DNA of 64,000 nt, from sequence record OL451225.1; one strand, 5' to 3'. Positions 6,537 to 61,218 of the stretch are shown in pieces (position 1 is the first letter of the stretch; the number at the start of each line of letters is the position of its first letter). Position numbers and translations under genes: made by a program. Under the pieces are notes generated by a model. The model did not search any database, was not told the DNA's origin, and worked only from the letters and a program-made list of their open reading frames with translations. Source of the stretch: Escherichia phage P896.

Positions 6537-6600
6537 AATGTTCTCCTCAGTAGTTGATATGGATAATATACTGCATTATCCCTTTGATGTAAACTGTTAT
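6537..6600 (-). promoter_or_regulatory. T4-type early promoter + conserved leader (family A)
   Basis: Minus strand GTTTACA...TATATTATCC...ACTACTGAGGAGAA-ATG. Confidence 0.6.
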
Positions 6601-6800
6601 TTTTCGTTAGAACGATAATCACATTCAAAAACTTTATTGTCATTAACAAAGGCTTTAACCAGCGCATTATTCACTTCTGCATACTGCACTGTAACCCATT
6701 CAATCATATTTTTGTCACTGACATCCAGCGCGGTTTCTTTGGTAAACATATTACCATTTTCAAACCAACCAATAAACAATACGTTCTCTAATTTATACAT
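6597..6800 (-). CDS. dmd: Dmd antitoxin (discriminator of mRNA degradation, anti-RnlA/LsoA)
   Basis: 67 aa; GWFENGNMFTKE...QYAEVNNALVKAF.ND.KV.E.D matches recalled T4 Dmd (61.5). Confidence 0.8.
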   Translation of the reverse strand: MYKLENVLFIGWFENGNMFTKETALDVSDKNMIEWVTVQYAEVNNALVKAFVNDNKVFECDYRSNEK

Positions 6801-39625: not shown

Positions 39626-39901
39626 TTATAGACGTTTAAAATTAAAGCAATACTCTGAAAATAAACTTGCAAAATTACGTTCAACCCAGACCCGTTGTTT
39701 TGGACTGGTAATCGTTGACAAATAGTATGCTTGTTGCAGGCTTATTCCGTTTTTATTGGGGCACTCTTTGTTGAACGAGTGATAGGTACTTGCAACGATT
39801 TCGACTTCGCGCTCATACCTTTCCTGGTCCTGTTGCATAGGAACAAAAACCAAAACCAGGAATATCAAAATAGAGATATACGTCCAAACCTTGTATACCA
39901 T
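39626..39901 (-). CDS. Membrane-anchored protein (91 aa), rI.1 position
   Basis: N-terminal TM helix; between rI and tk. Confidence 0.5.
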   Translation of the reverse strand: MVYKVWTYISILIFLVLVFVPMQQDQERYEREVEIVASTYHSFNKECPNKNGISLQQAYYLSTITSPKQRVWVERNFASLFSEYCFNFKRL

Positions 39902-39908
39902 GCGAACC

Positions 39909-40481
39909 TCAGCTTGTTAATTCGAGCCAATGTTTTCTGCACAAAGATACGTACGATTCATTCCCACCGACCAATACTTGCTCGCCGTCCTTTACAGCAG
40001 CACCGTCGATTACTCGAGCGGTCATGGTTGCTTTCCGGCCGCAATGACAGACGCCCTTTAATTCAACCAGTTTATCCGAAATAGCCAGAAGTCTGGCCGA
40101 ACCGGGAAATAATTGACCCCGAAAATCTGTTCTTAACCCGTAACACATAACGGGGATATTGTAATTATCAACCACTTGAGCTAACTGGTCAATTTGCTCT
40201 GGTAACAAAAATTGAGCTTCATCGACCAGGACACAATGGATATCCTTTTGAGACTCGGCCCATTTATAGAATTCAAACAGGTTCATGTCGGCCGTTACCA
40301 GGTTTGCTTCCTGGCTAATACCAATGCGTGATTTAATTTCAGATTCCGAGTCCCGATTATCAATAACAGGTTTTAGCAAAAGCACACTCATTCCACGCTC
40401 TTTATAGGAATAAGCTGCAGTCAGCAATGAAGCTGTTTTGCCTGCATTCATTGCTGCGTAATGATAAATTAAACTCGCCAT
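39909..40481 (-). CDS. tk: Thymidine kinase
   Basis: 190 aa; MASLIY.YAAMNAGKTASLL (P-loop), CHCGRKA zinc motif; matches recalled T4 Tk. Confidence 0.93.
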   Translation of the reverse strand: MASLIYHYAAMNAGKTASLLTAAYSYKERGMSVLLLKPVIDNRDSESEIKSRIGISQEANLVTADMNLFEFYKWAESQKDIHCVLVDEAQFLLPEQIDQLAQVVDNYNIPVMCYGLRTDFRGQLFPGSARLLAISDKLVELKGVCHCGRKATMTARVIDGAAVKDGEQVLVGGNESYVSLCRKHWLELTS

Positions 40482-40490
40482 GTCACCTTC

Positions 40491-40676
40491 TTATTCTGTA
40501 ATACTTTCCAGATAATTTTCTAAATCGTCTGAAGCCTTATTAAGGGCTTCTAGCGCTTTATAATAGTCTTCACGGGAGTAATATTCTGTATGAAGTTCTT
40601 CGTCGTATTCGCTTTTAGCATCAACAACAGTTTCAATCATATCCAGAATTTTATTTTTCTGTTCTTTAGTAATCAT
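40491..40676 (-). CDS. Hypothetical acidic protein (61 aa)
   Basis: ORF track. Confidence 0.45.
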   Translation of the reverse strand: MITKEQKNKILDMIETVVDAKSEYDEELHTEYYSREDYYKALEALNKASDDLENYLESITE

Positions 40677-40684
40677 AATATACC

Positions 40685-40870
40685 TTAAAGAGTATTCACA
40701 TAAGCAATTAATTCGTTTTCTTTCTCATCAAACCGATTAGCAAATTCTTCCAGATGTTCGGCATCTATCGGGCCGTATTCATCATAAAAGGCGTTTGCTT
40801 CTGTATGCTCATCCAAAAGCTCATGGATAAGCTCAAATAATCTACTTTTCTGACTAATGCTTAAACTCAT
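40685..40870 (-). CDS. Hypothetical acidic protein (61 aa)
   Basis: ORF track. Confidence 0.45.
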   Translation of the reverse strand: MSLSISQKSRLFELIHELLDEHTEANAFYDEYGPIDAEHLEEFANRFDEKENELIAYVNTL

Positions 40871-41094
40871 TTCGGTTCCCCATATCGTACAAATTTAGGA
40901 TGTTCGCAATCACCAGAATGAAAACCTTCACCCTTATGATTAGAACATCCTTTATTAGAACAGTACCACCAGTAATCATATTCGCAATTCATTTCATCGT
41001 TGCATAAAGCTGCGATTACTGGCCATTCACATTTTTCACATTTGGCCGTTTTAAGAATTCGGGCTTGGCTCATAACCATTGCACCTTTAAGCAA
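40867..41094 (-). CDS. Cys-rich small protein (75 aa)
   Basis: CEKCEW...CNDEMNCEY...CSNKGCSNH...GDCEH; likely metal-binding. Confidence 0.5.
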   Translation of the reverse strand: MLKGAMVMSQARILKTAKCEKCEWPVIAALCNDEMNCEYDYWWYCSNKGCSNHKGEGFHSGDCEHPKFVRYGEPK

Positions 41095-41282
41095 TATTCT
41101 TCTACGTGCTGTTTACGTTTATTTTTATCTATAAAAGTATATTCAACATATTCACCGATATACCATTTATCAGTGTTGTGCTGACTTTTTATAGGACATT
41201 TGGTTACTCGAGTTTCGGTCCAGCGTCGAATAATTTCCGCTTTGTTTTTAGGGTCAAACGGATGTGGGTAATGTGCTTTCAT
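41070..41282 (-). CDS. Hypothetical protein (70 aa)
   Basis: ORF track. Confidence 0.45.
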   Translation of the reverse strand: MKAHYPHPFDPKNKAEIIRRWTETRVTKCPIKSQHNTDKWYIGEYVEYTFIDKNKRKQHVEEYCLKVQWL

Positions 41283-41733
41283 AATCCACCACTATTAAAT
41301 CAATGTCAGGAGTAAACATATCAATTAATTGAGATACCTTATCCCAATCACCACCAGCAATACCACAACCAATACGAGGAATATAAATTACCGGTTTAAA
41401 CAAAAGGGTTTCTGCTTGTAGATTTAATTCTATCATACAATTTACTAAAGCGCCATAATCAAGATTAGGGCCTGGCTCGTATTGCGTATACAAGTTATAG
41501 CACATGCCAAAACCTGTCGGCTTATGTTTAAAAACAATAGACATATCGCCTAATTTATCGCGAGAACCATATTCAGTAGTGGTTTTATCTATTTCTAAAA
41601 CTTTTGGATAAGCCTTCGCCAACTGTCCAGCTACGCCAGAACCCATTGTGTGAAAGCAGTTACAACCATGTGCAATAATATTGCCTTGAAGAAAGAGGGC
41701 GACGATATCGCCCTTAATATACTGGGTAATCAT
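41254..41733 (-). CDS. Macro-domain protein (putative ADP-ribose binding/hydrolase), 159 aa
   Basis: GDIVAL...GNIIAHGCNCFHTMGSGVAGQLAKAYP resembles macrodomain N-terminal Gly-rich ADP-ribose pocket; later IGCGIAGG. Confidence 0.6.
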   Translation of the reverse strand: MITQYIKGDIVALFLQGNIIAHGCNCFHTMGSGVAGQLAKAYPKVLEIDKTTTEYGSRDKLGDMSIVFKHKPTGFGMCYNLYTQYEPGPNLDYGALVNCMIELNLQAETLLFKPVIYIPRIGCGIAGGDWDKVSQLIDMFTPDIDLIVVDYESTLPTSV

Positions 41734-42089
41734 TTAGAGTTCAATCCTCTATTATATGAATCCACTAACCTGTCAACCATACTGGTGCAGGCCGCCTTAT
41801 ATTTTGCACTTGACAGAATGCAATCCATTTCAAATAATTTCTTTTCATATTTGTTGGATAATACATTCTTTTTCAAAAGCGTATGTTCAACATCATTTTG
41901 ACCATCTTTATAGGCTGCGGTGAGCTTGGCACTGAACCGGATTACACAATCCACATTGCTTGATGCGCAATAATCTTTAGCCGTCCTCGTTGCATATTCT
42001 ACGATGCTGTTGTTGTCGTCGCTCTGTACTGAAGCTATTCCTCCCGTGCTGAATACTAACCCTATGGCTAAAGTGATAACTCTTACCAT
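41730..42089 (-). CDS. Secreted protein (119 aa)
   Basis: N-terminal signal peptide MVRVITLAIGLVFSTGGIASVQS. Confidence 0.55.
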   Translation of the reverse strand: MVRVITLAIGLVFSTGGIASVQSDDNNSIVEYATRTAKDYCASSNVDCVIRFSAKLTAAYKDGQNDVEHTLLKKNVLSNKYEKKLFEMDCILSSAKYKAACTSMVDRLVDSYNRGLNSK

Positions 42090-42091
42090 TT

Positions 42092-42634
42092 TTAATCCAC
42101 CGTTTTTAATAGGCCTCGTGATTTTAAGTAGTTAGCTTTTTCTAGGACCTGTGAAGCATACTTATTACCAGCTTTCACATTCCACCCTGCGTTATATGAT
42201 GATAGTGTTTTCCTTATATCCCCCTTATGAATATTTAACCAATATGAAAGCTCAATATAAGCCCAGCGTGCACTGTTCTCTCTCTTGCTTATCATCTTGA
42301 TTATTTCTTTATCTGTCATTGTCCACCCAACCTGTTTCACGCGTTCGCGCACGGTTGGAAGATAATTTTGGAATATACCATATGCATGATGCTTATCTTT
42401 ATTTAATCCAGTATTAACCCCAGCAGAACTTTCCTGCCAGGTTAAACCAGCCATGATATATCCCAAACCATTATGTTGGTGCGGATTTTCTTTGTACTTG
42501 CCATTTTTCTGGAACTGTTCTCCAAACGCATAAGCATATTGGAGGTTCTCCATTTGTTCATTACTGAAAGTAGGCTCTACGCTATGGGCAGACATACTAA
42601 CTGTCAATAGTAAGGTGGCGATTACTTTTTTCAT
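42092..42634 (-). CDS. Secreted lytic-transglycosylase-like protein (180 aa)
   Basis: Signal peptide; E-S...AYGIFQ pattern reminiscent of SLT/lysozyme-like domain. Confidence 0.5.
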   Translation of the reverse strand: MKKVIATLLLTVSMSAHSVEPTFSNEQMENLQYAYAFGEQFQKNGKYKENPHQHNGLGYIMAGLTWQESSAGVNTGLNKDKHHAYGIFQNYLPTVRERVKQVGWTMTDKEIIKMISKRENSARWAYIELSYWLNIHKGDIRKTLSSYNAGWNVKAGNKYASQVLEKANYLKSRGLLKTVD

Positions 42635-42644
42635 GAATTCCCCA

Positions 42645-43103
42645 TTAGATATAAATCACTTTTGTGCTAATTTTTCCTTCCAGACGATTAGAGTTAACAA
42701 ACGCCATACGACAACACATGGTCGGAGACTTCCCAGGAAGAGCTGGGTTAACTGTCATTCCTAACCATAGGTTCTTGTCTGTGATTTCCAGACGAAGTGG
42801 ACGATAGTTCACATTCGGGTCAATTTGTGCTTCAACTTCCGGGAGTGGTTTCATCTCCAGGAATTCAACGATTTCTTTTACATGTGGTGTGATTTTTCCA
42901 AACAAATCAAAAACATATTGTTCATCAATTTCACGTTGGATTGCACGGTCCAACAGGTGTGGACTGTACTTAATGAAGAATGCCTCAAGGCCTGCTTCTT
43001 TACAAGCCTTGTTGATAGCATTATTAATTTTGAGGAACTCCGTTTCAAAAATGCGACGAAGTTTATTGCGGCGAATGTAAACACTTGAATCGATAGTAGT
43101 CAT
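42645..43103 (-). CDS. regB: Endoribonuclease RegB
   Basis: Start at MTTIDSS; IRRNKLRR.FE.EF...HLLDRAIQREIDE...YRP.RLEITD.NLWLG matches recalled T4 RegB. Confidence 0.88.
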   Translation of the reverse strand: MTTIDSSVYIRRNKLRRIFETEFLKINNAINKACKEAGLEAFFIKYSPHLLDRAIQREIDEQYVFDLFGKITPHVKEIVEFLEMKPLPEVEAQIDPNVNYRPLRLEITDKNLWLGMTVNPALPGKSPTMCCRMAFVNSNRLEGKISTKVIYI

Positions 43104-43159
43104 GATTATCTCCTTTTGTTTGATGGGATAATCATAACTCATTTCAATCTGCTTGTACA

Positions 43160-43160
<1 letters not shown>
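43104..43160 (-). promoter_or_regulatory. T4-type early promoter + leader (family A variant) for regB
   Basis: Minus GTAGTGTACAAGCAG...TATGATTATCCCATCAAACAAAAGGAGATAATCATG. Confidence 0.55.
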
Positions 43161-43739
<579 letters not shown>

Positions 43740-43743
<4 letters not shown>

Positions 43744-43973
43744 TTCACTTCCTCGCCAGTTGCGATATCATATTCTACTAAACGAAGGCCTTCAGTCCAA
43801 CCTTGCACGGAGATATAGGTAGACGGGTAAATCATTTCTTTACCATTCCACCGACCGCCATCCCAGACTTCCAGAAAGTCTTGTTCACCTGGTCCATTAA
43901 ACCATTCAACAAATCTTTTCAGAGCTTCATCAGAGCCTTCAATTGTCAATTTAGACATATTTTTTCCAATCAC
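43740..43973 (-). CDS. Hypothetical protein (77 aa)
   Basis: ORF track. Confidence 0.5.
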
Positions 43974-44250
43974 TAATTAATCGCACATCCTGGTCATAGG
44001 TCAGGAGGCTACGAGTGATAATACCCTTACACGGTCCAGAAATAAATTCCAGAGTAAAGTAAGGAACCAACTTCATCAAGCGAATACTCGGAGCAGTGCA
44101 ACGAAATCTGGACCCAATAAAAGGCCCAGACAAAAACACATACTCAAAGAAATTTGCTTTATTAAAGATTTCAAAATTCTTTACGAAATCTTCTGACCTA
44201 ACCTTTGGAATAAAATAGATTTGGTCAAAAAGCTCTTCATGGGTCATCAT
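43951..44250 (-). CDS. Hypothetical protein (99 aa)
   Basis: ORF track. Confidence 0.5.
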   Translation of the reverse strand: MMTHEELFDQIYFIPKVRSEDFVKNFEIFNKANFFEYVFLSGPFIGSRFRCTAPSIRLMKLVPYFTLEFISGPCKGIITRSLLTYDQDVRLISDWKKYV

Positions 44251-44774
44251 TGCATTCCTATCACAAAGAACAGTGGCAAAGGCTTATCACCTTGACACAT
44301 AAATTTATTCATCATTACCTGATAAGCTTCATAGAACTTATCCATTGCAGGGAGGCGAATAGGTTCTTCAATAATGATTAAAAGACGCGTAAAACGCAAT
44401 CCACGGTACTTATGGAAATTATCTTCATCAAGGAAACTGCGTACAGTATCATAGACAACGAATCCAGGTCGTTCAACATTAAGATGTGGTTGGGCCTTAG
44501 AAACCTGTTTTATTACATTACAAATTTCTCGTGAGCGATGTGAAGAACTCGACATAACAATCACATCATTACCTTTAGAAACCCAATCAGCTGCGAACTG
44601 TGCAATGGCACTTGTTTTACCTGTTTGTCTTCCACCGTCAAGTCTCAGAGTGCCAAACTCTTGCATTCTTGAAGCGGGTTCATACCAGGTGTATTGGTCT
44701 GAATCTAATCGTTCAATGGCGCGTTCAGCGAAGGCGTGCATTAAGGTTAGATAAATGGGAGTTAAAAATTTCAT
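44247..44774 (-). CDS. P-loop NTPase-like protein (175 aa)
   Basis: Walker A-like GGRQTGKTSA. Confidence 0.55.
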   Translation of the reverse strand: MKFLTPIYLTLMHAFAERAIERLDSDQYTWYEPASRMQEFGTLRLDGGRQTGKTSAIAQFAADWVSKGNDVIVMSSSSHRSREICNVIKQVSKAQPHLNVERPGFVVYDTVRSFLDEDNFHKYRGLRFTRLLIIIEEPIRLPAMDKFYEAYQVMMNKFMCQGDKPLPLFFVIGMQ

Positions 44775-46908: not shown

Positions 46909-47361
46909 TTATCCGAAAATTTGAGTCATTACCTTGTACATCGATTTACCCATCACGTATTGCCATTGGCTCGGTTTAATCAGAGCAAATGCATCAAACT
47001 CTGGGACTGTACTGCCATCCGGAAAGGTATGATAGGCAGAGCATTTACTGTGTCTGAATTGTTCATGCTCGACAGGAACCGTATACAAAAACAGGTGAAG
47101 GTTTTTGTTATCTGAATAACGGAACTCACCGAGGTCTTTTAAGAATGCCGGGTCGTATTGGGTAAACCCAGTTTCTTCTTCGGTTTCACGAATAGCCGCT
47201 TCAATTGGGGATTCATCAGCTTCAACATGACCCTTAGGGATGTCCCATTTGTGTGCAGGCATACCTGGTTTACGAGAACCGGTCACACGACCCATGAATA
47301 ACTCTTTATCTTCGGTCATGAAAATAATGCCAGCAGATAATTCCTTCACTTTCTTACTCAT
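46909..47361 (-). CDS. nudE: Nudix hydrolase NudE
   Basis: Nudix box GHVEADESPIEAAIRETEEETGF; position next to e as T4 e.1/nudE; start set at MSKKVKEL. Confidence 0.85.
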   Translation of the reverse strand: MSKKVKELSAGIIFMTEDKELFMGRVTGSRKPGMPAHKWDIPKGHVEADESPIEAAIRETEEETGFTQYDPAFLKDLGEFRYSDNKNLHLFLYTVPVEHEQFRHSKCSAYHTFPDGSTVPEFDAFALIKPSQWQYVMGKSMYKVMTQIFG

Positions 47362-47590
47362 CGTCACGTTCCCAAGATTTTTTAAAGATTTCGGCCATAA
47401 TAATTTCAACGCGTGTTTCTGTTGATGGGCTTTCACTATCAGTTATTTGCACCATATAGTCAGAAATCGGGCAGAACATATCCAAGTCAGTTTCTAAATC
47501 ATCTTTGATTTTCTCTTCTGATGTACCTGTATCATAGGAATACAGATAAGAATCACATGACTCGGATTTAATATAAATTGCAATACTCAT
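47354..47590 (-). CDS. Hypothetical acidic protein (78 aa)
   Basis: ORF track. Confidence 0.5.
   Translation of the reverse strand: MSIAIYIKSESCDSYLYSYDTGTSEEKIKDDLETDLDMFCPISDYMVQITDSESPSTETRVEIIMAEIFKKSWERDDE

Positions 47591-60533: not shown

Positions 60534-61218
<685 letters not shown>

Follow-up and report, generated by a model that had tools for sequence, protein, structure and literature searches.

What does a 159-aa protein encoded in the tk-regB interval of Escherichia phage P896 do? The original prediction described it as a macrodomain protein that could reverse host ADP-ribosylation-based defenses (DarT-type DNA ADP-ribosylation or ADP-ribose-derived signals) or tune the phage's own Alt/ModA/ModB modifications. 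We examined the ORF in the window, the whole 64-kb stretch (64,000 nucleotides) taken from sequence record OL451225.1.

Identity and genomic context of tk.4

The ORF was confirmed in the sequence. It runs from an ATG to a stop codon on the minus strand, and its translation contains the motif strings quoted in the prediction (Table 1). The gene had been left unrecognized there, but it is already known: its name and annotation as tk.4 go back to the genome records of T4 and SP18, and the record of this phage names tk.4 too. At the DNA level, the tk.4 region was 98.3 to 98.7% identical to those of Shigella phage SP18 and Escherichia phage 212 (Gaprivervirus, Tevenvirinae). Nine of the 480 positions of tk.4 differed from SP18, and all of these differences are synonymous because the two proteins are 100% identical. 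In an ungapped alignment of 155 aa with T4 Tk.4, 57% of the positions were identical and 74% positive, indicating full-length orthology. T4 tk.4 has recently been given the name adfM, for anti-DarT factor, macrodomain, and the ORF is its orthologue in Gaprivervirus. The two proteins are alike in size, single-domain architecture, the place of their genes between vs and tk.3, and the invariant residues found in the alignment. They differ in the C-terminal tail, which is 4 residues longer here and of low confidence in the structural model, and the 3' end of the gene overlaps tk.3 by 29 nt here versus 4 nt in T4.

Relatives of the protein were found in 2,751 of 50,697 phage records, where they carry labels as diverse as "hypothetical protein," "macro domain protein," "Poa1p_like family protein," "O-acetyl-ADP-ribose deacetylase," "phosphatase," "RNase III inhibitor," and "non-structural polyprotein." The RefSeq label of T4 Tk.4 itself is "phosphatase; Tk.4; contains A1pp phosphatase motif." When 1.84 billion proteins were scanned, 18,531 relatives were found at an E value of ≤1e-3 and 1,135 at ≤1e-30. 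Macrodomains are present in about 41% of myoviruses (PMC9503650).

The gene order here is regB, vs.1, vs, tk.4, tk.3, the gene of a small Zn-binding protein, tk.2, tk.1, and tk. In T4 and SP18, tk.4 likewise has vs and tk.3 as its neighbors within the tk-regB interval, and the whole order is that of T4 except for the Zn-binding protein, at whose position T4 has no gene. The prediction that the macrodomain gene is flanked by two signal-peptide proteins, one of them SLT-like, held only in part. Both proteins exist (Vs and Vs.1), but both are encoded upstream, with tk.3 downstream, and the match of Vs.1 to SLT was weak, with an E value of 0.02 that falls below the threshold.

The stop codon of vs (TGA, 41732-41730) shares the sequence ATGA with the start codon of tk.4 (ATG, 41733-41731), and GAGGA is found at 41749-41745, 11 nt upstream of the start. 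This arrangement suggests that vs and tk.4 are cotranscribed and translationally coupled. In the region from 39800 to 44300, a sigma-70 promoter scan, with T4 middle and late promoter types outside the scope of the tool, gave 13 promoter-like sites versus 13.5 expected, and a terminator scan gave 4 terminator-like sites versus 3.2 expected. Being close to expectation, these counts carry no information on the transcription signals of the tk.4 region. Two plus-strand ORFs (41650-41901 and 41106-41315) were dismissed as mechanical, being embedded in well-supported minus-strand genes.

Several observations were made on other genes of the window. The N termini of T4 Vs and Vs.1 are also Sec-signal-like (MTKILVLCIGLISFSASASA... 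and MRKALLAGLLAISMMAHS..., respectively). In the SP18 GenBank record, the starts of vs and vs.1 are set further downstream, so that the signal-like segments are cut off. A secretion signal on Vs is odd, given its claimed modification of a cytoplasmic tRNA synthetase. Neither SP18 nor any other of the listed close relatives has the Tk.1 homologue, which explains why the megablast matches are interrupted by a gap of about 195 bp. Genes linked to conflict with the host, namely, dmd, nudE, and 57B, are located elsewhere in the window, the start of which corresponds to the modA.2/modA.3 region.

Table 1. Positions of tk.4, its sequence motifs, and other genes of the window
Feature	Position	Strand	Description
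tk.4 (adfM orthologue)	41254..41733	minus	159-aa single-domain macrodomain protein
tk.4 start region	41730..41749	minus	ATGA overlap and GAGGA, read from the sequence
H22-G-C-N25-C26 motif	41656..41670	minus	Last part of beta strand 2 (E19-25); lines the pocket on the side of the distal ribose
Phosphate-binding loop 1, M30-G-S-G-V-A35	41629..41646	minus	Aligns with TARG1 MGAGIA and DarG MGKGIA
N80-L-Y-T-Q84	41482..41496	minus	End of the central strand; AAC TTG TAT ACG CAA on the minus strand
Phosphate-binding loop 2, I121-G-C-G-I-A-G-G128	41350..41373	minus	Aligns with TARG1 PRIGCGLDRL and DarG PPLGVGNGGL
tk.3	41070-41282	minus	Downstream neighbor of tk.4; Pfam DUF7202
Small Cys-rich protein between tk.2 and tk.3	40867-41094	minus	Pfam "Phage zinc binding domain" PF23895, E 5e-29
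Tk.1 homologue, 61-aa ORF between tk and tk.2	40491-40676	minus	40% identical to T4 Tk.1
Vs ("valyl-tRNA synthetase modifier")	41730-42089	minus	Sec-signal-like N terminus MVRVITLAIGLVFSTGGIASV...
Vs.1	42092-42634	minus	Sec-signal-like N terminus MKKVIATLLLTVSMSAHS...
dmd	6597-6800	minus	Antitoxin against RnlA/LsoA; mapped from the SP18 annotation
nudE	46909-47436	minus	Nudix hydrolase, reportedly active on ADP-ribose; mapped from the SP18 annotation
57B	60534-60989	minus	T4 anti-CBASS Acb1; SP18 label "RNA ligase"; mapped from the SP18 annotation

Fold and active site of the Tk.4 protein

A search against macro-family profiles had been proposed as a check of the prediction. The Pfam Macro profile (PF01661) matched residues 22 to 136 on positions 2 to 117 of its 118-position model, with 33.2 bits against a gathering threshold of 22, and PHROG 335 matched the protein at 6.9e-71. 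An AlphaFold2 model, built from a 65-sequence alignment from which T4 Tk.4 was left out, had a mean pLDDT of 93.9 and a pTM of 0.88, with low confidence in the last nine residues only, and displayed the alpha/beta/alpha macro fold. The best Foldseek match of this model was TARG1 (E value of 4.2e-10, TM of 0.72 to 0.83). TARG1 was also found in a profile-to-PDB sequence search (E value of 4.5e-17), whose top group agreed with that of Foldseek. The nearest neighbors in both structure and sequence belong to the ALC1-like class (TARG1, DarG, Poa1p, and SCO6735) and not to the MacroD, PARG, or viral types. Therefore, the protein is a single-domain member of the ALC1-like class, and its identification as a macrodomain, as first claimed, is practically certain. 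A MacroD/YmdB-type O-acetyl-ADP-ribose deacetylase was ruled out on the family profile score, and an RNase III regulator and a PARG-like enzyme were both ruled out on their scores.

Both Gly-rich ADP-ribose phosphate-binding loops are present, and the Gly-rich pocket on which the prediction depended aligns with those of TARG1 and DarG at invariant or nearly invariant positions. The fully invariant loop residues are G33 and A35 in loop 1 and G122 and G124 in loop 2; M30 and G31 of the former and G127 and G128 of the latter are nearly invariant. Loop 2 has A126 in place of Asp125 of TARG1. The residues conserved without exception in 65 relatives, the least similar of them at 39% identity, were H22, G23, N25, C26, G33, A35, D49, G62, N80, Y82, Q84, P119, G122, G124, and W130. 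A larger set of 259 sequences combined the relatives with the best 150 cluster representatives of the 1.84-billion-protein scan. In this set, A35, D49, Y82, and Q84 were each found in all 259 sequences and N80 in 258, and none of the 259 had a Lys in the column of Q84. N25, which together with H22 and C26 is invariant (257/257 aligned for N25), aligns with N22 of DarG and N23 of PhiKZ AdfM, and a change of the latter to Ala lowered activity (PMC13309987).

The most informative position is Q84. An hmmsearch profile alignment placed T83-Q84 on T83-K84 of TARG1, and A126 on D125. With hhalign, N80-L-Y-T-Q84 fell on N76-F-P-T-K80 of DarG from Mtb, whose query sequence was checked against PDB 5m3i. 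Therefore, an invariant Gln stands in place of the catalytic Lys known from DarG and TARG1, and the Asp of TARG1 is missing. A seven-sequence MAFFT alignment, in which a 2-residue gap after T83 put Q84 on Arg/His, was dropped in favor of the two independent and concordant profile alignments, in which the strand is ungapped. In SCO6735, the residue equivalent to K80/K84 is Gln85, and both Q85A and Q85E were inactive (PMC9411070). This enzyme efficiently cleaves thymidine-linked ADPr-DNA and protects against DarT, with a proposed water-mediated mechanism (PMC9411070). Since SCO6735 is active with a Gln, the missing Lys is no sign of inactivity in the Tk.4 protein. These alignments group the Tk.4 clade with the Gln-type enzymes, and its chemistry is probably unlike that of DarG. 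Asp49 (in helix 44-52) and Tyr82, present in all relatives of the 259-sequence set, have no counterpart in DarG or TARG1; roles in catalysis or in thymine recognition are possibilities for these two residues.

The same residues bear on the historical "phosphatase" and "A1pp motif" labels, according to which the protein would be a Poa1p-type ADP-ribose-1''-phosphate phosphatase that clears a by-product of the RNA 2'-phosphotransferase KptA/Tpt1 or a related small derivative of ADP-ribose. The N-terminal HxCNC motif is indeed common to the Tk.4 protein and Poa1p, the Appr-1''-p phosphatase of yeast. Two active-site residues, H23 and S30, have been probed in Poa1p structures; by our numbering of the alignment, H22 falls on the His, within the HSCNC motif of Poa1p, and T29 on the Ser. 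However, the central strand of Poa1p reads LFTS against NLYTQ in the relatives of Tk.4 (CC-LFTS against YNLYTQ), which puts a Ser at the position of Q84, and the invariant N-x-Y-T-Q signature is not Poa1p-like. Moreover, sensitivity to DarTG2 is the sole phenotype reported for the T4 orthologue, and the substrate itself is not made by T4-type RNA repair: to our knowledge, repair by Pnk plus RNA ligase yields no Appr-1''-p. Weak in vitro Appr-1''-p phosphatase activity is common among macrodomains without being their role. We thus consider a phosphatase role very improbable.

The rank of TARG1 as the best Foldseek match, together with its match in the profile search, could also point to a TARG1-like eraser, which would act on ADP-ribosylated protein or RNA (such as CmdT-type mRNA marks), trim Alt/ModA/ModB modifications, or deacetylate O-acetyl-ADP-ribose. 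ADP-ribosyltransferases are encoded by this phage family, and the window starts in the modA region. However, the Lys84/Asp125 dyad of TARG1 is replaced by Q84 and A126, and no phenotype supports such a role. Alt, ModA, and ModB make arginine-linked ADP-ribose, and we know of no macrodomain of the TARG1/DarG class that cleaves this linkage. Reversal of these marks by Tk.4 is therefore unlikely, and the tuning of Alt/ModA/ModB modifications put forward in the original prediction found no support. On the other side, the Gln-type relative SCO6735 is active on both DNA and Glu/Asp-linked protein (PMC9411070). Overall, an eraser of this kind appears improbable as an alternative, and such a function may rather be an extra activity.

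Proposed role against DarT2

The evidence that bears most directly on function comes from T4. Transposon sequencing of T4 on a host expressing DarTG2 gave tk.4 as the single significant hit, and a clean tk.4 knockout was sensitive to DarTG2, after which the gene was renamed adfM (bioRxiv 10.1101/2025.11.20.689424, Nov 2025, preprint). Removal of ADP-ribose from DNA by T4 AdfM was proposed by the authors on genetic evidence, without biochemistry (bioRxiv 10.1101/2025.11.20.689424). Among the functions first suggested, reversal of DarT-type DNA ADP-ribosylation is thus the one with experimental support, which comes from an orthologue that is 57% identical and syntenic. The anti-DarTG2 phenotype is known from T4 only; we infer that it carries over to this phage. 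Since the identity is 57%, specificity could differ here.

The Tk.4 protein probably removes DarT2-made ADP-ribose from phage DNA, as an ADP-ribosyl-DNA glycohydrolase, a role to which we give good confidence. In the proposed sequence of events, the protein would be made from the vs.1-vs-tk.4-tk.3 gene string before or during DNA replication. The host toxin DarT2 attaches ADP-ribose to thymidines of single-stranded phage DNA and thereby blocks replication. The two Gly-rich loops form the cleft in which the protein would bind the ADP-ribose, and it would then cleave the ribose-thymine bond, restoring normal DNA. In effect, the phage would carry an orphan antitoxin. The chemistry of the protein would probably be unlike that of DarG, with the invariant Q84 for Lys and an Ala for Asp125 of TARG1, the same arrangement as in SCO6735, for which a water-mediated mechanism has been proposed.

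An alternative is that the protein counters DarT2 mainly by noncatalytic means, through toxin binding or shielding of ADPr-DNA, or that it degrades or sequesters Thoeris-type ADP-ribose-derived signals. There is a precedent for the former in dead mutants of SCO6735, DarG, and TARG1 (PMC9411070). However, the C-terminal DarT-binding domain of DarG is missing from the Tk.4 protein, and the strict invariance of H22, N25, Q84, and the Gly loops among the 259 relatives suits an enzyme better than a binder. As for the Thoeris signals named in the original prediction, we found no evidence for a link. We regard these possibilities together as having a very slim chance of being correct. Nevertheless, Q85A of SCO6735 still inhibited DarT without catalysis (PMC9411070), and therefore binding may contribute alongside hydrolysis by the Tk.4 protein.

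A broader idea, which we put forward tentatively and consider rather unlikely, is that the Tk.4-type AdfM proteins form a large Gln-type clade with Lys-independent, water-mediated chemistry and with substrates possibly beyond the products of DarT2. Candidates for such substrates could be ADP-ribosylated RNA and, as with SCO6735, Glu/Asp-linked proteins. The elements still missing for catalysis or base recognition could be D49 and Y82, which are invariant and specific to the clade. If the substrate range is indeed wide, one small phage enzyme could disarm several ADP-ribosylating defenses.

As a discovery, the result carries little weight, since a role of the T4 orthologue against DarTG2 was already reported in 2025. 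What the present analysis adds to the known gene is the mapping of the active site by sequence alignment, with Gln for Lys, which predicts Q84 and N25, and not a Lys, as the key residues for enzymology. It is also of value for annotation: the closer relatives among those in the >2,700 phage records could be relabeled as AdfM-like, probable ADP-ribosyl-DNA glycohydrolases.

Comparison with known macrodomain systems

DarG (Mtb, 5m3i; Thermus aquaticus, 5m31) has Lys80 where the Tk.4 protein has Gln84 and Asn19 where it has His22. DarG also has a C-terminal DarT-binding domain and an adjoining darT gene, both of which are lacking for Tk.4. With the NCBIfam DarG model (NF048014), the protein scored 28.2 bits against a cutoff of 250 and matched positions 3 to 141 of 338; likewise, it covers only positions 4 to 144 of the 329 in the PADLOC DarG model. 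By these comparisons, the Tk.4 protein is not a DarG but a separate stand-alone lineage predicted to work like the DarG macrodomain. TARG1/OARD1 differs by its Lys84/Asp125 dyad, absent here.

The closest parallel in the active site is SCO6735 of Streptomyces coelicolor (PDB 5e3b), matched with E values of 3.4e-7 with the single sequence and 1.2e-15 with the profile. It is likewise a stand-alone ALC1-like macrodomain with a Gln for the catalytic Lys and no Asp partner, and it hydrolyzes DNA and Glu/Asp-linked protein substrates alike (PMC9411070). The correspondence of Q84 to Gln85 is a transitive alignment, via TARG1 and DarG, and this one enzyme is the Gln precedent. SCO6735 differs in being cellular and DNA damage regulated and in having a longer mobile loop with Lys89 and Lys94. 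A further member of the Gln-type clade is a homologue from Pelagimonas phthalicica (GCA_004364805.1, L005 5001-5459), about 40% identical and encoded by a stand-alone chromosomal gene. When its neighborhood was inspected, no gene for DarT or another ADP-ribosyltransferase was found nearby, so that the locus offers no hint of the substrate; in both respects it resembles SCO6735. BT1257 of Bacteroides thetaiotaomicron (PDB 2afc/2fg1) has neither Y82 and T83 (NMIGQ) nor the C-N-C motif (ICND).

Among phage proteins, AdfN (T4 30.3) is also an antitoxin-like eraser of DNA ADP-ribosylation (PMC11825919). It differs from Tk.4 by its NADAR fold, its locus, and its target, the guanine-linked ADPr made by DarT1 of DarTG1, and this enzyme counters the guanine-specific DarT1 in T-even phages (PMC11825919). 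PhiKZ gp104, like the Tk.4 protein, is a phage-encoded stand-alone macrodomain; it strips DarT2-made ADP-ribose from DNA in vitro, rescues DarT2 toxicity, and protects the phage (PMC13309987). However, it is DarG-like, retains the Lys (FPTKDNW), and is a remote relative of the Tk.4 protein (hhalign E value of 2.2e-9). Moreover, import of gp104 takes it into the phage nucleus, which has no equivalent in T4-like phages. The name AdfM was given by two groups to these different proteins, T4 Tk.4 (Gln type, NLYTQ) and PhiKZ gp104 (Lys type) (bioRxiv 10.1101/2025.11.20.689424; PMC13309987). By their sequences, these AdfM proteins represent separate lineages within one class, and the difference in their active sites would make these lineages mechanistically distinct as well.
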